Below, one piece after another: positions 2,573-38,716 of a stretch of DNA of 64,000 bases. Positions within the stretch are counted from its first letter, which is position 1. Each line of letters starts with the position of its first letter. This DNA comes from Spirochaetia bacterium. GTDB lineage: Bacteria; Spirochaetota; Spirochaetia; UBA9216. The notes under the pieces were generated by a model, which saw only the letters and a program-made list of their open reading frames with translations, was not told where the DNA came from and did not search any database. The DNA lies in the NCBI GenBank assembly GCA_963675665.1, contig OY776510.1, positions 3,808,001 to 3,872,000 of the forward strand, written 5' to 3'. The translations under genes and the position numbers were made by a program.

Positions 2573-3220
2573 TTACTGCTTGGTATTTCTTCGCCTTGAA
2601 TTCACAAACCGGATAAAATCACTGATATTCCGGACTAAAATGCGATCATCGTAAATATCCACCCGCCTCTGCACCATAAAATGGTTTAGAATAGTTCTGC
2701 ACCGTTCGGGCGACATTCCGGCCCAGTGGGCTACGTCATCAACACTTGTTTTAAATTCACGCATCTCTTCAGACGGGGCATCAACGGTTCCGGTCTCGTT
2801 CAACATCAGAAAAACATCGGCAACCCTGGCCTGTTCATCTTCAAGAGTCAGAATCATAAAACGGCGTTTCTGGTCATATATTCTTTTTGTGAAAAGTTTG
2901 AGCAGCTTAAGGGCAATCTGAGGGTTTCCCATCATAAGAATTTCAAAATTCTCACGGTTAAACTCAAGAACTTTTACCTGATCAAGCGCTATGGCCGAAG
3001 CTGATCTCGGAGCACCTTCAAGGATAGCCATTTCACCGAATATTTCACCGGGATTCAGAATATCAATGGTTTTTTCGATATTATCAATTATCTTTGTAAT
3101 TTCGACCCGGCCTGATTGTATCAGGTAAAATGTATCACCCGGTTCAAACTCGCAGAACAGAATATCATTCTTTTGAAATGTTTTAGCAAATCGTTCAAAT
3201 ACGGACAAATCCAGTGCCAT
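2573..3220 (-). CDS. Crp/Fnr-family cNMP-binding transcriptional regulator
   Basis: cNMP domain GEIFGEMAILEGAPRSASA plus a C-terminal HTH-like segment (SVDDVAHWAGMSPE). Confidence 0.85.
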   Translation of the reverse strand: MALDLSVFERFAKTFQKNDILFCEFEPGDTFYLIQSGRVEITKIIDNIEKTIDILNPGEIFGEMAILEGAPRSASAIALDQVKVLEFNRENFEILMMGNPQIALKLLKLFTKRIYDQKRRFMILTLEDEQARVADVFLMLNETGTVDAPSEEMREFKTSVDDVAHWAGMSPERCRTILNHFMVQRRVDIYDDRILVRNISDFIRFVNSRRRNTKQ

Positions 3221-3224
3221 CTGA

Positions 3225-4229
3225 TTACCCTTTTAACCCGTCAAGAGCCCTGCCGGCCTTTTTATGAATGGGAGTACCTTCCGATGCCATTGAGAGTACT
3301 TTATTGTAAAAACCGGAAGCCTTGGCAGTATCATTCTTCTTTTCATACGAATTTCCGACACAGAACAGCGCTTCCAGCATATCAGGATGCTTGGGATATT
3401 TCTGAATCATGGCAGAAAAGTGTTTAATACAGGTATCATAATTTTTCATACTGTACAGGCAGCGACCGACTTCAAACTGGGCTTTTGCCTGGAACTCGGA
3501 ATCCCCGCCCGATACTATCACATTTTTGAAAACATTAAGCGCTTCGTTATATTTTTCCTGGCTAAAGAGGTTAACTCCCCGGTAATACTCTTTCGCAGTT
3601 TCAGACATCGAACCGCCTGAAGATGAAGACGAAGAACCACCTCCGGATGCTGCCGGAGCAACAGAAGGAGAAGCCACGGTGTTTCTGGGTGCATTCTGCA
3701 CCATGATTTCAACTCTCTGCAGGTTCTCATTGGCTTCAGAAACATATTTTCCCGAAGGATAATAAGTCAGGTAACTGCGCAAGGCATACAAGGCCTGAAC
3801 ATTTTTCCCGCATTTCTGGTAATAGCTGCCGATCTTGAATAAACCGGTCTCGGGGTCTTCATCCTCGCCGGTTGAAATCAGGTTGCTTAGCTGCTTGTGA
3901 ATACGTCTCAGCTGATTTGAAAACACCTTCAGCATTTTCATTATTATTCTTGTGTTCTGCATTACAACAGCTTCGAATTCAGGAACAGTAAAAGACAACA
4001 TCTCGGCATCTTTTACTACAAAGGCTGTTTCTTCACGGGGATATTTTCCTAATGCTGATTTTACACCGAAGAATTCCCCGGTGCTGATAATATCCTGCAA
4101 TTCCTGCCCGGTTTCTATATCCTGGTATTTCAGGATCACCGATCCGCTTTTCAGAATATATACAGACTCGTTAAGATCGCCTTTAAAATAAACGATGGAA
4201 TTGGCTTTATATCTTACCGGTTTAGGCAT
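3225..4229 (-). CDS. cNMP-binding domain + TPR protein
   Basis: N-terminal GEFFGVKSALGKYPREETA, Ser/Gly linker, then TPRs (AQFEVGRCLY, ALFCVGNSY). Confidence 0.85.
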   Translation of the reverse strand: MPKPVRYKANSIVYFKGDLNESVYILKSGSVILKYQDIETGQELQDIISTGEFFGVKSALGKYPREETAFVVKDAEMLSFTVPEFEAVVMQNTRIIMKMLKVFSNQLRRIHKQLSNLISTGEDEDPETGLFKIGSYYQKCGKNVQALYALRSYLTYYPSGKYVSEANENLQRVEIMVQNAPRNTVASPSVAPAASGGGSSSSSSGGSMSETAKEYYRGVNLFSQEKYNEALNVFKNVIVSGGDSEFQAKAQFEVGRCLYSMKNYDTCIKHFSAMIQKYPKHPDMLEALFCVGNSYEKKNDTAKASGFYNKVLSMASEGTPIHKKAGRALDGLKG

Positions 4230-4378
4230 TATCTCTCCCGATTTTTTTCATTCATCATGATTGTAATTCCCTGACAATTTGCTGTCAACGACCTGTACAG
4301 AATAATTACCTTTTTTTGATTATCGGCATATATAGTCTATGGACGACCGTTTTTTTTACTGTTAAATTGGATCTGACA

Positions 4379-5293
4379 ATGAACAGATTACTGCATATTG
4401 TGCTTTTTATTTTTATCATCGCTATACCTCTTCCTCAATACTCTGCAGCACAATCAGCCGGAAACCTTTACCCCGTTATTGAAAGACTTGATTTTACCGA
4501 TCTGAACTACAGACAGCTTCAGGAAGATATTGAATTTTACTATAAAGCTGCCGGTGCAGGAAAAGAGCTTCCTCCCCTGCTTTTTTATTCTTACTCCGTC
4601 GACTCGGATATCAACATCTTTTCTATCTCGTCACAATCCGGACTCACCTATGAAACAATAGCAACATTCAACAGAATAAGCTCAACCGCCGACAATCTTG
4701 AAAACAGAACGCTGCTGCTGCCGAGCCAGCCCGGAATATTTCTTCCTGAAACACCCGCTACGGATCTTGAGTTTATTGCCATGTCATGGAGGGCCCCCTT
4801 ATTACAGGATTCGTATAATGTCTCTGTTGAAGGAAACAATTACTTCTTTTTCCCGGGCGAATCGTTTCATAATGTTGAACGGGCTTTTTTTCTGCGTATT
4901 CTTTTTGCAAATCCTCTTCCGGAAGGAATCGTAACCTCAAAATACGGTTACAGAAAAAGTCCGTTTACAGGACACAATACTTTCCATAACGGTATTGATA
5001 TAGCAGCTCCGGAAGGTACAGAAGTCCGCTCGGCAAGAGACGGTATAATAAGTTTAACCGGATTCAATGAAACATACGGGAATTTCATTCAAATCAGCCA
5101 TAGCGGAGGGTACGAAACATTCTATGGCCACCTAAATAAAATTTTTGTTGAGTTGCATGATAAGGTAAATTCTACTATGATAATAGCAGAAGTCGGCAGT
5201 ACCGGATTATCAACCGGGCCGCATCTGCATTTTGAGGTTAGAAGAGACGGAAGAGCTACAGATCCGTCATCACTAACCCCCGGATTGGATTAA
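4379..5293 (+). CDS. M23 family peptidase (possible LysM), exported
   Basis: Signal peptide from ATG 4379; HNGID and HLH Zn motifs (GLSTGPHLHFEV). Confidence 0.88.
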   Translation: MNRLLHIVLFIFIIAIPLPQYSAAQSAGNLYPVIERLDFTDLNYRQLQEDIEFYYKAAGAGKELPPLLFYSYSVDSDINIFSISSQSGLTYETIATFNRISSTADNLENRTLLLPSQPGIFLPETPATDLEFIAMSWRAPLLQDSYNVSVEGNNYFFFPGESFHNVERAFFLRILFANPLPEGIVTSKYGYRKSPFTGHNTFHNGIDIAAPEGTEVRSARDGIISLTGFNETYGNFIQISHSGGYETFYGHLNKIFVELHDKVNSTMIIAEVGSTGLSTGPHLHFEVRRDGRATDPSSLTPGLD

Positions 5294-6282
5294 TGAGAAA
5301 ACTGTTACCTTTATTTATTATTTTTTTGGCACTTTTCCCCATGTTTTCAGTATTCGGGGATAATATCAGGGGAGATGTAGTTAAGCATATTATCTTAACC
5401 GATGCTTCTTCAAAAGAAACATTCACAATGAGCATTGAAGATGTTTTTGCAGTATCTTTTGAGCGTAATTCTGAATTCATCCGTGGCGTAGAAATTGAAA
5501 TTTTGATTCCGACCAGCCTCAGAGATTATAGCGGAAGCTTCGCATTCAATATTTTTAAAAAAATAAGCCCTGAAATAACCTCAGGAATCGGCACTTATTA
5601 TGGTAAAAAATACAATACCTTTATTCTCCCGGACGCAGCAAAGTTTTATATCCAAATTCCGTATAAGGAAAGTATTGCAGGCGAAGCATCACCGTATACA
5701 AAAGTTATTGAAGAAATTCTGCAATATAACGATTCTCCGTTGATGGTTACCGTATTGCCGATCATGAAAGGTTTTCCATCAAGTATTTACGGCAGCAATT
5801 TCACAATAAAAATTTCTTCGATATTGAAAGAAAGCGGCAATCTTATCCTTAATGTTTCCATTCCTGAGGATCTGGACAGCCGACAGCTGTCGCTTAATGT
5901 AGACGGCGGGAGCGTTTTGGTCAAAGACGGGAAAGCAGTTATTGCGCTTTCAGCCGGGAATCATAATATTTCCGCTGATATTCCCGGAGGAATCGCCGTG
6001 AACAGAACCGTAACGATTCAGGCCGGTAAAAGCACCGAAATTGAACTTGATATAGAAAAACTTGAAAGCCATGCAATAATAGATGTGCCTGTAAATACTG
6101 TTGTTTACATGGACGGAGCCAGGGTTGAACCCGGTTCCGACGGGAGACTTGCCCTGGAACCCGGACAGCATATAGTGCTGTTCAAGATTGGAGACTATAA
6201 AATAAGTAAAAAATTCGACATTTCACCCGGTAAGGACTGTAAAATTTCACTTTTTCTTGATATTTTTATAGAGGAGAACTAA
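5293..6282 (+). CDS. Exported hypothetical protein with C-terminal PEGA-like beta domains
   Basis: Signal peptide; VYMDG...LEPGQHIV pattern; TAATG coupling to the M23 gene. Confidence 0.6.
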   Translation: MRKLLPLFIIFLALFPMFSVFGDNIRGDVVKHIILTDASSKETFTMSIEDVFAVSFERNSEFIRGVEIEILIPTSLRDYSGSFAFNIFKKISPEITSGIGTYYGKKYNTFILPDAAKFYIQIPYKESIAGEASPYTKVIEEILQYNDSPLMVTVLPIMKGFPSSIYGSNFTIKISSILKESGNLILNVSIPEDLDSRQLSLNVDGGSVLVKDGKAVIALSAGNHNISADIPGGIAVNRTVTIQAGKSTEIELDIEKLESHAIIDVPVNTVVYMDGARVEPGSDGRLALEPGQHIVLFKIGDYKISKKFDISPGKDCKISLFLDIFIEEN

Positions 6283-6310
6283 ATCTTTGTTTAGTTCCAG
6301 TCGATAATAA

Positions 6311-6399
6311 TTGTGTCGGGACAAAAAATATAGTTCCCCTCCCAGTTTACTATATTAACCGACACAATAGGCCGGTCTTTTAGACCGGCCACTTTTTTT
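6311..6399 (+). ncRNA. Candidate small RNA: hairpin with C-rich loop followed by an intrinsic terminator
   Basis: Stems TTGTGTCGG/CCGACACAA and AATATAGT/ACTATATT enclose the loop TCCCCTCCCAGTTT. Sigma28-like TAAA-N16-GTCGATAA lies at 6280-6307. Confidence 0.45.
6370..6399 (+). terminator. Intrinsic terminator
   Basis: GGCCGGTCT-TTT-AGACCGGCC followed by ACTTTTTTT. Confidence 0.85.
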
Positions 6400-6495
6400 A
6401 TTATCCTATGCTTTTAACCTTACGCCAGATTCTGATTGGCTGATTTTTGCCCCTATCGCTTGACAAAATCAAAGCATGAACATACTGTAATCGAT

Positions 6496-9003
6496 ATGGT
6501 TTCCGACAAAAAGAAGCGCCGAAGAATTGAAACAATACTTGCTGTCTGTATCATCCTTTCCGTTATTATAGGAGTAATAATCGGTAAAGTACTAAGCGAG
6601 ATAAAGAATGTTGATATCCGAGCAGATCTGCAGAGCTATGAACCCGCACTTCCGACTCAAATCCTGGATCGAAACGGCAATCTGATAACCGAGTTATTCT
6701 CTGATGAAAAAAGAGAAATAGTCCCGGTTGATGAACTTCCAAAACATCTTATTTATGCCCTGATCAGCCGTGAAGATGCCAATTTCTATGAACATAACGG
6801 TTTAAGTTATAAGCATTTTTTCAGGGCACTCTATAACATTGTCACTGGCAGATACTTTTCAGGCTTCAGTACTTTAACAATGCAGGTTGCCGGCGCGCAC
6901 TATGCCGACAGAACGGAAATAACGCTTACGCGAAAAATCAAGGAAGTCTGGTACGCATTCCAGATAGAAAAAGCCCTGACAAAAAACGAAATTCTTGGAA
7001 TATATATCAACGAGGTATATTTCGGCCACGGAACCTATGGGGTTGAATCCGCATCACAGTTCTATTTCGGACATTCGTCACGGGATATATCGCTTGCCGA
7101 ATCAGCTATACTTGTAATTCAGCTTGCAAGCCCTGCGCTGTACTCGCCCATTAATCACCCCGACACTGCAAGAAACCGGCAGATAGATGTTCTGAACGAG
7201 ATGGTGGAGCTCGGGTATTGCAGCCGGGAAGCTGCCGATGATTCATTTGCCGAATACTGGGATAATTACGACTACAGCCGGTCGAATATCGCCAGCGCTT
7301 ATATAGGTAACGACAGCCTTGCACCGTACTTCAGCGAATACGTACGTATTGAATTAAACGATATGCTTTACGGCGCAGTAGATGTAAACAAAGACGGTTA
7401 TGTTGTTCATACAACACTTGATCTTGATATTCAGAATACAGCCCAACGGATAATGGACCAGGCCTACCATGAAATCAATGTTAAATACAGGCAGTATTCT
7501 GATGACCGCTATGATATAGTAAACGAAAATTTCATCAATATAGTTGATCTTCTGTCTTTAACATTCAATATCAGCGATATCCGCGTAACAGGCGCCAAAC
7601 AGAAAGCTGCGGCATCCGACACCTTCTATGATTCTCTGAATCCTACGCTTTATATGCTCTCGTCCCTATTCGGCCTTACAGATCTTAACAAGGCAACAAT
7701 AACCGGGTTTAACAAAAACAAAACCCGGACTGAAAAAAATACCGTGGAAGGCGCTCTGATAACGCTTGAAAACAATACAGGCCGGATTATTGCAATGATC
7801 GGCGGAAGCGATTTCGAAACGAAGCAGTATAACCGGGCAGTTGATGCTACAGTTCAACCCGGCTCCTGCATTAAACCGCTGTACTACTCGGCGGCCGTGT
7901 CTTCCCGGGTTATAACTCCCGCCACCCGTCTTTATGACGGTCCCGTTGTTTTTTATGATGAAAGCGGCAATGCATATGAACCTTTGAATTACCTTGGAGA
8001 CTGGGAAGGTTCTGTTCTTGCCCGCTATGCTCTTGCTACATCAATGAACGTTCCGTCATTACAGGTTCTGGACAAGGTAGGGTTTAATACCGCAATCGAA
8101 CGAATATCAAAAATGACGGGGCTTTACGACAAACGAAATGATGAAGTTCTTTTCCCGCGCGGGTTTCCTCTCGGTCTCGGTGTTACCGCTCTTGCTCCAA
8201 TTAATATGGCCAGGGCTTTCGCCACCTTTCCAAACCAGGGCAAGGAAGTAGTGCCTATTGCCATTATCAGTGTAGAAGACCGTGAGGGCAATATTGTACT
8301 TGAACCGGAAAAAGAGAGACTGCGCGAAAAGCAGAAGAACAAGGGTGAAGACCAGATTATGACGCCCCAGGAAGCATATATTATGACGGATATGCTTCAA
8401 AGTACTGTAGAATACGGAACGCTTGCCAATCGGCGCCGTTACGTCGGAGGATTCGACGGAATGCCAATTGCAGGGAAAACCGGAACAACACAGAACTGGG
8501 AAGCGGCATGGACATGCGGATTTTCACCCTATTACACTACTGCAGTCTGGTTCGGTTTCGACATGCCCGGCAACTCTCTTGGGCGTTATCTTACCGGTGC
8601 TACTGCTGCAGGTCCGTACTGGGCAATGTATATGAAAGAAATTCACAGCGACCTGGAAATCAAGGAATTTCCCGAACCTGAATCAGGCCTTATCAAAGTC
8701 AGGGTTTGCCGCGTATCAGGACTGCTTCCTACAAACGACTGCGACGACGGAACAATCGAGGAATTGTTTCTTGTAGGAACCGAACCCAGACAGACCTGCG
8801 ATATACATAAATTCGAGAAGCAGCGTGATGAGGAGCTGCTAAGAAGACTTCAGGATAACCTGCTGATTGAAGATGTCCCCTTTAATGCATTTGATGTTCC
8901 GCAGCTTGAGCTTCCCGATTTTATGCTTGATCTGAACGGCAAACCGGATTCGGATATTAACGACTCATCTGATAACGGAGATTACAACCCCCTGCTTGAT
9001 TAA
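6496..9003 (+). CDS. Class A penicillin-binding protein (PBP1A family)
   Basis: N-terminal TM anchor; GT motifs EDANFYEHNG, FSTLTMQ, RKIKE; TP motifs SCIK, SMN, KTGT. Start moved to ATG 6496. Confidence 0.93.
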   Translation: MVSDKKKRRRIETILAVCIILSVIIGVIIGKVLSEIKNVDIRADLQSYEPALPTQILDRNGNLITELFSDEKREIVPVDELPKHLIYALISREDANFYEHNGLSYKHFFRALYNIVTGRYFSGFSTLTMQVAGAHYADRTEITLTRKIKEVWYAFQIEKALTKNEILGIYINEVYFGHGTYGVESASQFYFGHSSRDISLAESAILVIQLASPALYSPINHPDTARNRQIDVLNEMVELGYCSREAADDSFAEYWDNYDYSRSNIASAYIGNDSLAPYFSEYVRIELNDMLYGAVDVNKDGYVVHTTLDLDIQNTAQRIMDQAYHEINVKYRQYSDDRYDIVNENFINIVDLLSLTFNISDIRVTGAKQKAAASDTFYDSLNPTLYMLSSLFGLTDLNKATITGFNKNKTRTEKNTVEGALITLENNTGRIIAMIGGSDFETKQYNRAVDATVQPGSCIKPLYYSAAVSSRVITPATRLYDGPVVFYDESGNAYEPLNYLGDWEGSVLARYALATSMNVPSLQVLDKVGFNTAIERISKMTGLYDKRNDEVLFPRGFPLGLGVTALAPINMARAFATFPNQGKEVVPIAIISVEDREGNIVLEPEKERLREKQKNKGEDQIMTPQEAYIMTDMLQSTVEYGTLANRRRYVGGFDGMPIAGKTGTTQNWEAAWTCGFSPYYTTAVWFGFDMPGNSLGRYLTGATAAGPYWAMYMKEIHSDLEIKEFPEPESGLIKVRVCRVSGLLPTNDCDDGTIEELFLVGTEPRQTCDIHKFEKQRDEELLRRLQDNLLIEDVPFNAFDVPQLELPDFMLDLNGKPDSDINDSSDNGDYNPLLD

Positions 9004-14190: not shown

Positions 14191-16860
14191 TTATTTCTTG
14201 TTTCTCAGTACTGCCTGCGCTGCCGCATGCCGTGCAATAGGAACCCTGAACGGAGAACATGAAACATAATTCAGTTTGTTTCTGTAACAGAAATCAATTG
14301 ATGCAGGGTCGCCTCCGTGCTCGCCGCATATTCCAAGCTTGAGATCACTCTTAATACCGCGACCAAGACTTGCAGCCATCGTAACAAGCTTGCCTACACC
14401 GTTCTGATCAAGCGATGCCGTCGGGTCAACCTCAAGAATGCCCTGTGAAATATACGAAGGCAGAAATGCACCGGCGTCATCACGTGAAAAACCGAAGGTC
14501 ATCTGGGTAAGGTCGTTAGTACCGAAAGAAAAGAAGTCTGCGTGCTCGGCAACTTCATCGGCCGTAAGTGCCGCTCTCGGTATTTCAATCATTGTTCCAA
14601 TCTTGTACTCAACCTTTTTGTTTGTTTTCTCAAAAACCCCGGCAATAACAATTTCAGCATTGTCTCTGAGAATTTTTAATTCCTGCCAGGTTCCGACCAA
14701 CGGAATCATGATCTCGGGAAGGACTTTATCGCCTTCCGCTTCAACCTCAACGGCTGCGCTTATTATTGCTTCAACCTGCATATCGTATATTTCAGGATAT
14801 GTAACTCCAAGCCGGCATCCGCGGTGACCGAGCATGGGATTATGTTCATGAAGCGCTTCAATCTTCTGCTTAAGCGCAGTTGGAGTAATTCCCGCCATTA
14901 CAGCAATATTTTTGATATCCTCATCAGTCTGGGGAACAAATTCGTGTAACGGAGGATCAAGAAGCCTTACAGTAACAGGAAGACCGCTCATTGCCTTGAA
15001 AATACCTTTAAAATCCGCTTTCTGCAGACTGAGGATTTTACCAAGAGCTTTCTTTCTGTCGTCAGTTGTGTCTGCCACAATCATCTGCTGAAAATATTCA
15101 AGTTTTCCGGCATCAAAAAACATATGCTCGGTACGGCACAAACCTATGCCTTCAGCGCCAAGGCTTCTTGCAAGCTTTGCGTCTTCGGGCTGATCTGCAT
15201 TTGTTCTTACAAGAAAACCTTTCTGCTCAAGACCATCCCGTTCATCAGCCAGCCTGATATTATCGGCCCAGGAAAGGAAGTCAACCAGTTCTCCGGACAT
15301 CTCCGGGGCTATTGTTTCAACCTGCCCGGCAAAGACCTCGCCGGTTGTTCCGTCGATAGTAATCCAGTCGCCTTCCCTGTACTCTTTTCCACCGACCTTC
15401 ATTATTTTTCCGGATATTGCAACATCCTTGCATCCTGCTACACACGGACGGCCCATACCTCTTGCAACAACAGCGGCATGGCTTGTCATACCCCCGGTAG
15501 AAGTCAGGATTCCCTGTGCTACATTCATTCCGCCTATATCATCAGGAGAGGTTTCTTTTCTTACCAGAAGGACCTTCAAATCTCCGCGTTCAACCCACAT
15601 TTCTGCATCATCGGCCGAGAAGACAATCTTGCCGGTTGCAGCTCCAGGAGAAGCGTTAAGACCTTTGGCCAGCGGTTTTAAAGTTTTTTTAACTTTCGGA
15701 TCTATCATAGGGTGAAAAAGCTGATCAAGCTGGTCCGAATCAACACGGAACATGGCTTCTTCTTTGGTTATAAGCCCTTCTTTGGCCATATCCACGGCGA
15801 CCTTAACTGCTGAAGCGCCGGTCCTTTTACCGTTTCTTGTCTGAAGAATGAAAAGATTACCCTGCTGTATTGTAAACTCCATATCCTGCATATCACGATA
15901 ATGTGTTTCAAGTTTGTCCTTGATATTAACAAGCTGGGAATAGATATTCTCGTCCTGATCGGCAAGCTGCGACAGTTTTTCGGGGGTCCTTATGCCGGCT
16001 ACAACATCTTCGCCCTGTGCATTCATCAAATACTCACCGTAAAAAACATTTTCTCCCGTCGACGGGTCTCTGGAGAAGCAAACGCCTGTTCCCGAATCGT
16101 CTCCGAAGTTACCGAAGACCATGCATTGAACATTTACCGCTGTGCCCTTGAGATTTTTGATTCCGTTAATATCTCTGTATTTAATTGCTTTCGGATTGTT
16201 CCAGGAGCCGAATACTGCATCAATAGCAGCCTGAAGCTGCTCAAGCGGTTGCTGGGGAAAATCCTTGTTCTGATTTCCTTTAAAAGCAATTTTATAAAGC
16301 TCAACAAGTTTTTTCAAATCATCAGCATCGAGCTCCGTATCCTGCTCAACGCCTTTTTTCTTTTTCATATCCTCAAGGATGTCCTCGAAAACATTAATAT
16401 CCATACCCAGTGCAACATTACTGAACATCTGAATGAATCTTCTGTACGCGTCCCATGCAAATCTCGGGTTTCCCGTTATCGCGGAAAGACCTTCGACGGC
16501 ATTGTCGTTCATTCCAAGGTTAAGTATAGTATCCATCATACCTGGCATTGAAACAGCAGCTCCGGAACGAACTGAAACAAGCAGCGGATCTTTCGGATCT
16601 CCGAGTTTTTTGCCCATCAGGCTCTCAAGTTTTCCAAGAGTTGATTTCAACTCTGCATCAAGGCCTTCAGGATACTGCCTGTTGTTCCTGTAAAACATAT
16701 CGCAGACTTCGGTAGCAATAGTAAATCCGGGCGGTACAGGAATACCAAGATTTGTCATTTCAGCGAGGTTTGCACCTTTTCCTCCAAGCAATTCTTTCAT
16801 GCTTGCGTCCCCTTCGGCCTTACCGTCGCCGAAGAAATAAATAAATTTCGTGTCACTCAT
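14191..16860 (-). CDS. ppdK: Pyruvate, phosphate dikinase
   Basis: LLGGKGANLAEM, GGMTSHAAVVAR (phospho-His), FSFGTNDLTQ, GICGEHGG; 889 aa. Confidence 0.98.
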   Translation of the reverse strand: MSDTKFIYFFGDGKAEGDASMKELLGGKGANLAEMTNLGIPVPPGFTIATEVCDMFYRNNRQYPEGLDAELKSTLGKLESLMGKKLGDPKDPLLVSVRSGAAVSMPGMMDTILNLGMNDNAVEGLSAITGNPRFAWDAYRRFIQMFSNVALGMDINVFEDILEDMKKKKGVEQDTELDADDLKKLVELYKIAFKGNQNKDFPQQPLEQLQAAIDAVFGSWNNPKAIKYRDINGIKNLKGTAVNVQCMVFGNFGDDSGTGVCFSRDPSTGENVFYGEYLMNAQGEDVVAGIRTPEKLSQLADQDENIYSQLVNIKDKLETHYRDMQDMEFTIQQGNLFILQTRNGKRTGASAVKVAVDMAKEGLITKEEAMFRVDSDQLDQLFHPMIDPKVKKTLKPLAKGLNASPGAATGKIVFSADDAEMWVERGDLKVLLVRKETSPDDIGGMNVAQGILTSTGGMTSHAAVVARGMGRPCVAGCKDVAISGKIMKVGGKEYREGDWITIDGTTGEVFAGQVETIAPEMSGELVDFLSWADNIRLADERDGLEQKGFLVRTNADQPEDAKLARSLGAEGIGLCRTEHMFFDAGKLEYFQQMIVADTTDDRKKALGKILSLQKADFKGIFKAMSGLPVTVRLLDPPLHEFVPQTDEDIKNIAVMAGITPTALKQKIEALHEHNPMLGHRGCRLGVTYPEIYDMQVEAIISAAVEVEAEGDKVLPEIMIPLVGTWQELKILRDNAEIVIAGVFEKTNKKVEYKIGTMIEIPRAALTADEVAEHADFFSFGTNDLTQMTFGFSRDDAGAFLPSYISQGILEVDPTASLDQNGVGKLVTMAASLGRGIKSDLKLGICGEHGGDPASIDFCYRNKLNYVSCSPFRVPIARHAAAQAVLRNKK

Positions 16861-35896: not shown

Positions 35897-35949
35897 TAAA
35901 TTACTTTTTTTATATATCCGATAAAGTTTAAGTTCGCTAAGGACGATAT
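35897..35949 (+). promoter_or_regulatory. Tandem sigma28-like promoters upstream of flagellin
   Basis: TAAA-N16-TCCGATAA (35897-35924) and TAAA-N16-GACGATAT (35922-35949). Confidence 0.55.
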
Positions 35950-36086
35950 AAGAAATAAGGGTAAAACCCGGAGATTTCTAAATAAATCAACCGGATCTTC
36001 CCCTCTGGTATTATTATCGGGAAAAAATTACGCCTGCTTAGTAATATCTGAAAAATTTTTGTTAATAGCTCTGCGTATGCAGGGTC

Positions 36087-36120
36087 GGGCATGGATGCCC
36101 TTATATATTTCCACGGAGGA
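36087..36120 (+). promoter_or_regulatory. CsrA-binding sites in the first flaB leader
   Basis: GGGCA-TGGA-TGCCC hairpin plus ACGGA in the SD. Confidence 0.75.
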
Positions 36121-36124
36121 AAAC

Positions 36125-36985
36125 ATGATTATTAATCACAATGTAAGTGCCATGTTTGCTAACAGACAACTTGGTCACACCAACAAACTGGTCGGAAAGG
36201 ACATGGAAAAACTGTCATCCGGACTCAGAATCAACAGAGCCGGTGATGATGCATCAGGACTTGCTGTATCCGAAAAGATGCGCTCACAGATCAGAGGTTT
36301 AAAACAGGCTTCGGACAATGCAGAAAACGCTATATCCTTTATCCAGGCTACAGAAGGTTATCTCGGAAACACCCAGAGTATTCTTCAGAGAATGAGAGAA
36401 CTTTCAGTTCAGTCTGCAAACGGTATATACAGCGAAGAAGACAGAATGCAGATTCAGGTCGAAATTTCACAGCTCGTAGATGAAGTTGACCGAATTGCGT
36501 CTCACGCACAGTTCAACGGTATGAACATGCTGACCGGCCGTTTTGCTGCCGAAACCGGCGAAAACACAGTTACTGCATCAATGTGGTTTCATATCGGAGC
36601 AAACATCGATCAGAGAGAACGTGTTTATATCGGAACAATGACTTCAACAGCTCTCGGTGTCAGGGAAATCGGAAGTGAGCAGATTCTGTCGCTCGAAACC
36701 CCGGAAAGTTCCAACATGGCTATCGGTGTTATCGACAGTGCTCTCAGAACTGTCAACAAACAGAGAGCAGATCTTGGCGCCTATCAGAACAGACTTGATC
36801 ATGCTGTTCAGGGTCTCGATGTCGGTGCTGAAAATCTTCAGGCTGCTGAATCCAGGATCAGGGACGCTGATATGGCAGAGCAGATGGTTAATTACACAAA
36901 GAACCAGATTCTTGTACAGGCTGGAACAGCAATGCTTGCCCAGGCAAACATGAAAACACAATCTGTATTGCAATTGCTTGGATAA
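36125..36985 (+). CDS. flaB: Periplasmic flagellar core flagellin FlaB
   Basis: [41 protein letters not shown]; start at ATG 36125 after the SD. Confidence 0.97.
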
Positions 36986-38138: not shown

Positions 38139-38168
38139 GGGAGGGGCTCGCGCCCCCTTCCCTCTTTT
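38139..38168 (+). terminator. Intrinsic terminator after the second flaB
   Basis: GGGAGGGG...CCCCTTCCC followed by TCTTTT. Confidence 0.75.
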
Positions 38169-38287
38169 AATTACGTTGATTGTCATGTAAACAATCGGCG
38201 TTTCAGCGTTGATAGGTTCGCTGGCATTGCATTGCAATGCAAATGTATACCGGTTTATCCGGTCTGCATCAACCAGGGAGTGGTGAT

Positions 38288-38716
38288 ATGGAAATTGATT
38301 TAATGACTATAAATTCAACTTCTGTGCCAGTAAAAGCGCCGGCCAAAAAACAAACTGACGCTTCTTCTACTTCGAATGAGACATCCAAAGTTAAGGCCCG
38401 AACCGAAGAGACCGTAAAACAGCAGCAGGAGATGAAAGAAACTGCTATAAAACAGCTTGAAGTGGAACTTCAGAAAACGGAAGAACAACGGCAGAGAATT
38501 GACGCAGAAAAATATCTCAAGGAAATAATTAAAATAACAGAGACCTTTAACAGAAAGCTCAAATACAGTATAGATAAGGATTTAGGCCAGGTAATCGTAA
38601 AGGTCGTTGACGCGGAAACCGATAATGTTATAAAGGAGCTCCCTCCGGAAGAGCTGAAAAGGCTGTATGCCAAAATGAAAGAAGCTATTGGATCGATTAT
38701 AGATACCATTATCTGA
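38288..38716 (+). CDS. flaG: Flagellar protein FlaG
   Basis: LKYSID...VIVKVVDAETDNVIKELPPEE; lies between flaB and fliD. Confidence 0.9.
   Translation: MEIDLMTINSTSVPVKAPAKKQTDASSTSNETSKVKARTEETVKQQQEMKETAIKQLEVELQKTEEQRQRIDAEKYLKEIIKITETFNRKLKYSIDKDLGQVIVKVVDAETDNVIKELPPEELKRLYAKMKEAIGSIIDTII

Follow-up and report, generated by a model that had tools for sequence, protein, structure and literature searches.

The window examined here is a stretch of 64,000 nucleotides (nt) from a Spirochaetia bacterium (contig OY776510.1, positions 3,808,001 to 3,872,000 of the forward strand), whose genome, denoted G000 below, consists of one contig of 5.15 Mb with 43% G+C. Within it a 329-aa open reading frame (ORF) is followed by a gene of the PBP1A family. 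Between the two, a first-pass annotation made from the letters alone had placed a candidate sigma-28-dependent small RNA (sRNA), with a promoter, a two-part stem, a loop complementary to Shine–Dalgarno (SD) sequences and a terminator. Each of these parts is found at the position given, and the minimum free energy (MFE) fold is identical to the one drawn there (Table 1). That the gene is real, widely conserved and unannotated is close to certain. The match between its loop, the putative seed, and its predicted target sites suggests a switch that would link the start of flagellum assembly to cell division.

Table 1 The sRNA locus and its neighbours, in window coordinates
Feature	Position	Strand	Remarks
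-35 element TAAA	6280-6283	+	TAA part is the stop codon of the ORF at 5293-6282
-10 element GTCGATAA	6300-6307	+	separated from TAAA by a 16-nt spacer
Outer stem, 5′ arm GTGTCGG (RNA GUGUCGG)	6313-6319	+	partner 6359-6365 in MFE fold
Inner stem, 5′ arm AATATAGT (RNA AAUAUAGU)	6327-6334	+	partner 6349-6356 in MFE fold
14-nt loop TCCCCTCCCAGTTT (RNA UCCCCUCCCAGUUU)	6335-6348	+	unpaired in MFE fold
Inner stem, 3′ arm ACTATATT (RNA ACUAUAUU)	6349-6356	+	from MFE fold and alignment
Outer stem, 3′ arm CCGACAC	6359-6365	+	from MFE fold and alignment
Terminator stem GGCCGGTCT/AGACCGGCC	6370-6390	+	9 bp, G+C-rich, 3-nt loop
Terminator tail, AC then U7	6393-6399 (T7)	+	terminator overall 6370-6399
Predicted sRNA, ~85 nt	~6313-6399	+	start from promoter geometry, end at terminator U-run
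Upstream ORF, 329 aa	5293-6282	+	no Pfam/NCBIfam family; last codons and stop overlap the sRNA promoter
PBP1A-family gene	6496-9003	+	downstream neighbour, conserved
M23 peptidoglycan endopeptidase gene	4316-5293		flanks the 329-aa ORF, with the PBP1A gene on the other side
Two adjacent genes for cyclic-nucleotide-binding domain proteins	2573-4229	-	one fused to TPR repeats

The locus

With its own promoter, an intrinsic terminator and no conserved ORF, the element has the marks of an independent transcription unit. It is present as a single copy in the genome, which rules out a repeat or mobile element. An antisense gene was also ruled out: only the + strand carries the T-run, and on the - strand no start codon follows the SD-like complement. 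A small ORF within the RNA would comprise 6 codons from a GUG only and is not conserved, and this candidate was rejected as well. The C-terminus of the 329-aa protein (...FLDIFIEEN here) is conserved even at the DNA level and overlaps the region 5′ of the sRNA promoter.

Homologues of the element

A blastn search with window positions 6200-6520 against 40 relatives matched the same locus in genomes of many families. In the resulting alignment the top of the hairpin is unchanged and the -10 element nearly so, while the stems vary in sequence and still pair. An exact scan with a 21-letter loop pattern, covering one genome per species in 185,579 species, returned at least 119 loci. Among the 80 matches listed with titles all are spirochaete records, and these include Spirochaetaceae, Treponemataceae, Rectinemataceae, Sediminispirochaeta, Alkalispirochaeta and Salinispira. 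From the exact-motif and blastn loci 135 regions were cut (4 loci were too short at an end), of which 130 are distinct.

Promoter

The sigma-28 -10 consensus is GCCGATAA. In 127 of the 130 distinct copies CGA[T/A]A lies 24-30 nt 5′ of the loop motif, the commonest -10 forms being GACGATAA (52 copies) and GTCGATAA (33 copies), and a G stands two bases ahead of it in 83% of copies. When the 127 copies are anchored at the -10 C, a TAA is seen 21-19 nt further 5′ (T 71%, A 90%, A 89%). The geometry across copies is TAAA-N15-GNCGATAA, with N16 in the window copy; by sequence, this is the geometry of FliA promoters. For comparison, the mapped sigma-28 promoter of T. denticola flaB2 has the -10 element CCGATAA and the -35 element TTAA (PMC9481697). 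UGUC is found 12-15 nt past the -10 C in 87-95% of copies, which puts the predicted start of the transcript at the base of the outer stem.

The first-pass annotation had pointed to the same spacing at the flaB promoter, and rightly so: TAAA-N16-TCCGATAA (also TAAA-N16-NCCGATAA) is located at 35897-35924, 135-160 nt 5′ of the flagellin gene at 36059-36985, with a second flagellin gene, flaG and fliD downstream. Scanning the window with the promoter pattern gave 4 matches against 1.05 expected. TAAA-N16-19-CGATAA also occurs at 38598-38625 (+), inside flaG and ~125 nt before fliD (38748), where it may be an internal sigma-28 promoter, and there is another such site at 15873-15901 (+). A loose pattern applied genome-wide, TAA[AGT]-N14-16-NCGATA[AT], was uninformative (383 matches vs 290 in the reversed-sequence control).

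The sigma factor itself is encoded in the genome (fliA, TIGR02479 above cut-off, G000:C1:3954515-3955192), and FliA is found by the same family in 34 of the 41 genomes of the relatives set. The sRNA promoter is probably FliA-dependent, as judged from its motifs, and we infer that FliA transcribes the RNA. A search for sequencing runs of this organism listed 6 contig-level runs from 2 studies and no RNA run.

In 78 of 138 loci the gene that ends at the promoter is a homologue of the 329-aa ORF. Another gene lies upstream in 32 of the 90 loci with full flanks, on the opposite strand in 8 of these 32, and the promoter motif is still kept. The RNA is therefore not tied to the upstream gene. These observations bear on the simplest alternative, namely that the element is the mere 3′ untranslated region and terminator of the upstream operon, carrying a promoter-like motif by chance and having no function. 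No terminator is present between the ORF at 5293-6282 and the element, and read-through transcripts would share its terminator, as this alternative would have it. It is, however, already contradicted by the comparative data, in which element and promoter are conserved across the phylum with covariation, also beside different or opposite-strand upstream genes, and we regard it as hardly credible.

RNA structure and covariation

Positions 6308-6402 fold with an MFE of -36.1 kcal/mol, compared with -14.5 ± 2.7 kcal/mol for shuffled sequences (z = -8.0); none of 200 shuffles folds as well. The MFE structure is also the centroid, accounts for 25% of the ensemble and contains the same stems as described.

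A filter requiring a hairpin followed by a T-run reduced the 130 regions to 123 distinct transcripts, 2 being dropped for N and 5 for want of a clear T-run. RNAalifold identified three helices in the alignment of these 123 sequences. Standard pairs occupy 95.9% of 2421 alignment cells and compensatory two-sided changes are observed at 16 of the 20 pairs; when the partners are slid by 1-3 columns as a control, pairing falls to 32-53%, and 0 of 500 shuffles match the alignment on any of five measures. In helix 1, the outer stem, 4 of 5 pairs show compensatory changes and 95.4% of cells are paired. Helix 2, the inner stem, has compensatory changes at 3 of 6 pairs, and the three pairs nearest the loop either stay constant or vary in one partner alone. 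All 9 pairs of helix 3, the terminator, are compensatory. Over 120 distinct sequences preserve the element with covariation, far beyond what chance would give.

The seed core UUCCCCUCCCA(G) is identical in all homologues found, those recovered by the covariance model only included; blastn and covariance-model homologues keep UAGUUCCCCUCCCAG, or at minimum UUCCCCUCCCA. As a separate observation, the terminator stem is unusually constant in sequence (alignment columns 84-92 and 104-113), GGCCGG...CCGGCC reaching at least 90% in several columns, though the helix needs pairing only.

The terminator is also central to a second alternative, in which the element is a sigma-28-driven leader or attenuator acting in cis on the PBP1A gene, so that read-through would couple cell-wall synthesis to the flagellar stage, with no targets in trans. 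Indeed, 90 of 138 loci have a PBP1A-family gene on the same strand at a distance of 60-700 nt downstream; of the 32 loci with full flanks but another upstream gene, 29 also have it. Against this, a strong terminator with its U-run is present in nearly all copies (123 distinct sequences passed the filter and 5 failed), past the terminator there is a TTGACA-type element, both here and in many relatives, and at least 48 of 138 loci are without a PBP1A match, many of them having short flanks. An alternative antiterminator pairing was not noticed, no dedicated search for one having been made. A leader would, moreover, leave the conserved complementary sites at fliF and ftsZ, described below, unexplained. 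We consider this alternative quite unlikely.

Distribution

The covariance model (R1) finds the RNA in 32 of the 41 genomes of the relatives set; the match in this genome spans window positions 6305-6399 (89.1 bits, E = 2.5e-16). The first-pass annotation had named such a search and the covariation analysis as checks, and had made its proposal depend on conservation of the loop and promoter in relatives. The model matches in 32 of 41 genomes and the compensatory changes at 16 of 20 pairs bear it out, and loop and promoter are kept.

Six of the nine relatives without the sRNA have no FliF match (G015, G021, G023, G028, G029 and G034); one of these, G023, is 84% complete, has FliA and FliI and may simply be incomplete. 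The three sRNA-less relatives with FliF are G011, G013 and G035, the last a Borrelia-like genome of 1.2 Mb that is also without FliA.

In a phylum-wide sample of 151 genomes, strict filters left 25 covariance-model matches. Families outside the class that have the RNA are f41 (8/9) and f44 (2/2), and also f54, f61 and f64; in each of two large families the strict search found it in 0 of 21 genomes. The out-of-class promoters read TAAAG-N15-NCCGAAAAT and the loops again contain UUCCCCUCCCA. A second look recovered divergent copies in G045 (three seed hairpins), G052 (with TCGATAG as the -10 element) and G127 (a 1.1 Mb genome). The three G045 hairpins (L324, L329 and L333) are separate and share the same seed (UUCCCCUCCCAGUCUAC and similar) in this out-of-class genome, and for at least one of them the promoter is sigma-70-like (TTGCAT-N17-TATACT) and not of the sigma-28 type. 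The G045 copies indicate that the seed hairpin can be multi-copy and differently wired.

No Rfam 15 family matched the element at threshold. The best was SorX, which reached 17.1 bits (E = 0.32) where the gathering score is 46.6, and all 7 listed matches are far below threshold (SorX, mmgR/suhB, RsaE and Termite-flg were considered).

Predicted targets in this genome

The first-pass annotation had looked for targets inside the window. GGGAGGGG, complementary to the loop, is indeed found in the terminator arm between flaB and flaG at 38139-38146, and as an 8-nt match it is within chance, the genome holding 51 occurrences. GGAGGG is likewise present before the second flaB, and forms only 6 bp with the loop. 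GGAGGG sites before fliD and ppdK had been proposed as well, with the remark that chance might account for the 8-nt match. The proposed targets are thus weak (6-8 nt), whereas the underlying idea of a sigma-28 riboregulator with an anti-SD loop has gained strong comparative support from the promoter in 127 of 130 copies, the covariation, the invariant seed and the presence of FliA. Conserved and much longer complementarity lies outside the window, at fliF, ftsZ, fliI, fliO, fliP and fliQ. We also note that the terminator after the second flagellin gene (38139-38170, +) has the form GGGAGGGGC-UCGC-GCCCCCUUCCC; the 8-mer just mentioned forms its 5′ arm, and the 3′ arm is similar to the seed of the sRNA (CCCCUUCCC).

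Nine of the 51 occurrences of GGGAGGGG sit 1-15 nt before the start of an ORF of at least 60 aa. Among these nine are fliF, fliI and fliO of the long flgB-to-flhB operon, which was annotated by Pfam, and ftsZ. A crude gene call gave 4537 translation-initiation regions (TIRs), and the duplex energy of each with the 22-nt hairpin top was calculated. In this ranking fliP is 1st, ftsZ 2nd, fliF 8th, fliI 9th and fliO 15th; the median energy over all TIRs is -9.1 kcal/mol and the first percentile -19.3 kcal/mol. At least 9 contiguous pairs with the 14-nt core are possible in 27 of the 4537 TIRs and at least 10 in only 8, four of which are fliP, fliF, ftsZ and fliI. The 3′ end of the 16S rRNA is canonical (CACCUCCUUUCU; GGAUCACCUCCUUUCU), so that pairing with the ribosome explains the GGAGG core of the sites and not the conserved flanks of (C/U)UGGGAGGGGA(A).

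The target sites and fliA are clustered ~150 kb from the sRNA gene. ftsZ is located ~9 kb upstream of the flgB-flhB operon on the same strand (regions L142, 3987424-3988600, and L141, 3960001-3980000), and fliA (3954515-3955192) lies ~5 kb beyond flhB. Two unrelated features of the genome were also noted. At G000:C1:1215163-1218313 a 27-nt string recurs seven times with a period of 525 bp, which points to a tandem repeat of ~525 bp, and in the region of G000:C1:4563007 a run of ~16 G stands directly 5′ of the start of a 490-aa ORF, a homopolymer tract of a type able to change its length.

Co-conservation of seed and target sites

Thirty fliF loci of ~4.7 kb were fetched from the relatives. The site directly abuts the fliF start codon (UGGGAGGGGAA-AUG here, AACUGGGAGGGGAAC-AUG in G024) and is the longest on either strand of each locus. 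It extends over 9-14 nt in all 29 sRNA-bearing genomes among the 30, the sequence upstream of it not being conserved between families. Sites of 9 and 10 nt in the sRNA-bearing G036 and G026 bring the total to 31 of 31 class members examined, G025 being left out because its fliF start is off its contig. The exception among the 30 loci is G013, which has GUGGGAGGUGAACGUAUG and no sRNA. The flagellated and sRNA-less G011 and G035 have the plain sites CAGGAGGUUCGGAUG and UAAGGAGCUAUG.

The ftsZ site is 9-13 nt long in 27 of the 31 sRNA-bearing genomes, typically GCU(U)CUGGGAGGGGG, and 7-8 nt in the remaining 4, one of these views being cut at its edge. The eight sRNA-less genomes show 5-7 nt at ftsZ, a plain GGAGG, and none exceeds 7 nt. 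At fliI the site reaches at least 9 nt in 16 of 27 genomes, three loci where the match falls short of the N-terminus having been left out. Pattern scans in distant families show it ahead of four genes in G040 (fliF, fliO, fliP and a rod-binding, FlgJ-like gene), ahead of fliF, fliI and fliQ in G018, and ahead of fliF in G019. The same scan was uninformative in the G+C-rich G014, where the control matches as often as the test.

Outside the class, the five sRNA-bearing genomes have a fliF site of 9-13 nt in 5 of 5 and an ftsZ site of at least 9 nt in 3 of 5. Among five genomes first scored as sRNA-negative by the covariance model, G048 lacks the site, and in G051 it spans 8 nt at fliF and 5 nt at ftsZ. 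G045, G052 and G042 do have sites, and G045 and G052 were later found to have divergent seed hairpins. With a few exceptions, seed and target sites are conserved together in the genomes compared, and pairing of the seed with fliF and ftsZ is probable from the sequence comparison.

The pattern of conservation also allows one to weigh a role as a protein-binding RNA, a decoy or scaffold in which the loop and loop-proximal stem would form the recognition site of a protein, the GGGAGGGG sites in mRNAs being kept for some other reason. The three loop-proximal pairs and ~15 nt of loop, invariant or changing on one side only, go beyond what a seed of 10-12 nt needs, and the constancy of the terminator stem would fit such a role too. 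On the other hand, the invariant part coincides with the stretch complementary to fliF and ftsZ while the non-complementary 3′ part of the loop varies, the mRNA sites follow the sRNA in their occurrence across genomes, and our analysis names no candidate protein. This role therefore appears unlikely to us.

Proposed mechanism

We propose that the element encodes a FliA-driven sRNA acting in trans, which at fliF, the export-gate genes and ftsZ would occlude the ribosome-binding site. From sequence evidence we put the probability of this whole chain at roughly 60%. An RNA of ~85 nt would be transcribed from its own FliA-type promoter, located within the final codons of the upstream gene, stop codon included, and ended by the intrinsic terminator, its two-part hairpin displaying the invariant C-rich loop. 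A sigma-28-type promoter implies that the sRNA would be made late in flagellar assembly, once sigma-28 is active. The loop seed UUCCCCUCCCAG would then pair with the unusual extended SD (C/U)UGGGAGGGGA(A) abutting the start codon of fliF (the MS ring), of ftsZ and of export genes in the same long operon (fliI, fliO, fliP and fliQ, depending on lineage). With positions ~-13 to -1 covered by such pairing, the 30S subunit would be kept from binding and translation would drop. The result would be negative feedback from the late to the early stage, restricting the initiation of new basal bodies, with a coupling to the division protein FtsZ.

The sign of the effect deserves separate comment. With the same sRNA and the same targets, pairing might instead activate or stabilise the polycistronic flgB-operon mRNA, or protect it from cleavage; several sites lie inside one long operon, where control of processing or stability is plausible. 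The paired stretch is, however, the SD itself and ends 0-3 nt before the start codon. SD pairing adjoining the start codon is the classical geometry of repression by ribosome occlusion. We therefore infer pairing in vivo with repression rather than activation, and hold the activating variant to be fairly unlikely.

Several points count against the proposed mechanism as a whole. Repression is assumed from geometry only, and the mRNA sites might also be kept by a protein that recognises GGGAGGGG or by selection for very strong initiation. In the target search the complementarity counts include G-U pairs, 23 other TIRs of this genome also reach 9 nt, and the top duplex sites of a genome-wide scan that ignored gene starts (3051863, 1424299, 3111183 and 3692805), rejected as candidates, lie inside long ORFs. 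Loci L022-L140, to which most homologues of the alignment belong, were retrieved by an exact loop match, so that loop invariance there is by construction and independent support comes from the blastn and covariance-model matches. The strict covariance search misses divergent forms such as those of G045, G052 and G127, which makes the absence counts upper bounds, and the genomes compared are related rather than independent samples, kinship being ignored in the counts. Individual genomes also depart from the pattern. G042 has an 11-nt fliF site and no sRNA found even on a second look, while G055 and G106 have a divergent sRNA (loop UUCCCCUCCCACCC) and only 7-8 nt at fliF and ftsZ. G134 (99% complete; L261, L352) carries the sRNA with an intact TAAA-N15-GCCGATAT promoter, and neither a protein search nor PF01514 found FliF in it; its ftsZ site is a G-run. 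Either flagellar genes were missed in G134 or the RNA has a role independent of flagella, possibly at ftsZ.

A wider claim can be built on the feedback proposed here, which we put forward tentatively and would sooner bet against than on. The RNA may be a phylum-wide riboregulator, produced only after sigma-28 release, whose single invariant 12-nt seed would close the ribosome-binding sites of fliF, of export-gate genes and of ftsZ simultaneously. Completion of one set of periplasmic flagella would thereby stop the founding of new motors, setting flagellar number, and would gate cytokinesis, so that the flagellar checkpoint would be connected directly, through RNA, to cell division. Seed and sites would have been evolving together from a time before the Spirochaetota classes diverged, and Borrelia-like and non-flagellate lineages would have lost the two jointly.

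Comparison with known systems

A literature search, with most subscription journals outside its coverage, returned nothing on this RNA and no spirochaete sRNA acting on fliF or ftsZ. The loop sequence was found in no relevant context (4 unrelated matches), and the spirochaete papers returned do not describe post-transcriptional control of early flagellar genes. The RNA is predicted to be a base-pairing sRNA of the flagellar regulon, conserved to an unusually wide extent, and the connection to ftsZ predicted for it is new. If the proposal is true, the RNA would be among the most widely conserved sRNAs of the phylum; it is absent from Rfam 15, and the covariance model can be used to annotate it.

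In Firmicutes, RsaE/RoxS, RNAIII and LhrC pair through unpaired C-rich motifs of hairpin loops with the G-rich ribosome-binding sites of several mRNAs. The spirochaete RNA differs from these in having a single loop, a sigma-28-type promoter, a phylum-invariant seed of 11-12 nt and no Rfam family at threshold.

Closer in regulation are the sigma-28-dependent sRNAs of E. coli, UhpU, MotR, FliX and FlgO (PMC10578931). UhpU corresponds to the 3′ untranslated region of another gene, and the spirochaete element, which has its own promoter, is similarly placed at an ORF's 3′ end. The E. coli RNAs are Hfq-associated. They have no sequence or Rfam relation to the spirochaete RNA, whose predicted sites, unlike theirs, are the SDs of fliF, the export-gate genes and ftsZ.

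Two sRNAs of C. jejuni offer a functional parallel. According to the abstract, CJnc170 is FliA-dependent and CJnc230 RpoN-dependent, and overexpression of CJnc170 reduces flagellar length and motility (PMC11187230). Like the RNA proposed here, both are tied to a tier of the flagellar hierarchy and balance hierarchically expressed components. They differ in phylum, sequence and targets, CJnc230 acting on flgM and a regulator of flagella interaction, and the abstract states no link to fliF or ftsZ (PMC11187230). If true, our proposal would extend the few sigma-28-dependent sRNAs known in E. coli and Campylobacter by a late-to-early feedback arm directed at the very first step of assembly.

In spirochaetes the count of periplasmic flagella has to be set at each pole, and new flagella have to arise where the cell will divide. 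In Borrelia burgdorferi, FlhF and FlhG control flagellar number in a manner coupled to division, FlhG leaving the levels of the examined flagellar proteins unchanged, and the same 2026 paper describes the coupling of flagellar biogenesis to division as still unclear (PMC13712777). The problem is the same, with FliF acting early and flagellation to be coordinated with cytokinesis, whereas the Borrelia solution is protein-based and spatial (PMC13712777). The Borrelia-like G035 has neither FliA nor the sRNA, and plain SDs. For spirochaetes that carry the RNA, the candidate offers a concrete link, with a defined promoter, a 12-nt seed and fliF and ftsZ sites conserved across dozens of families.

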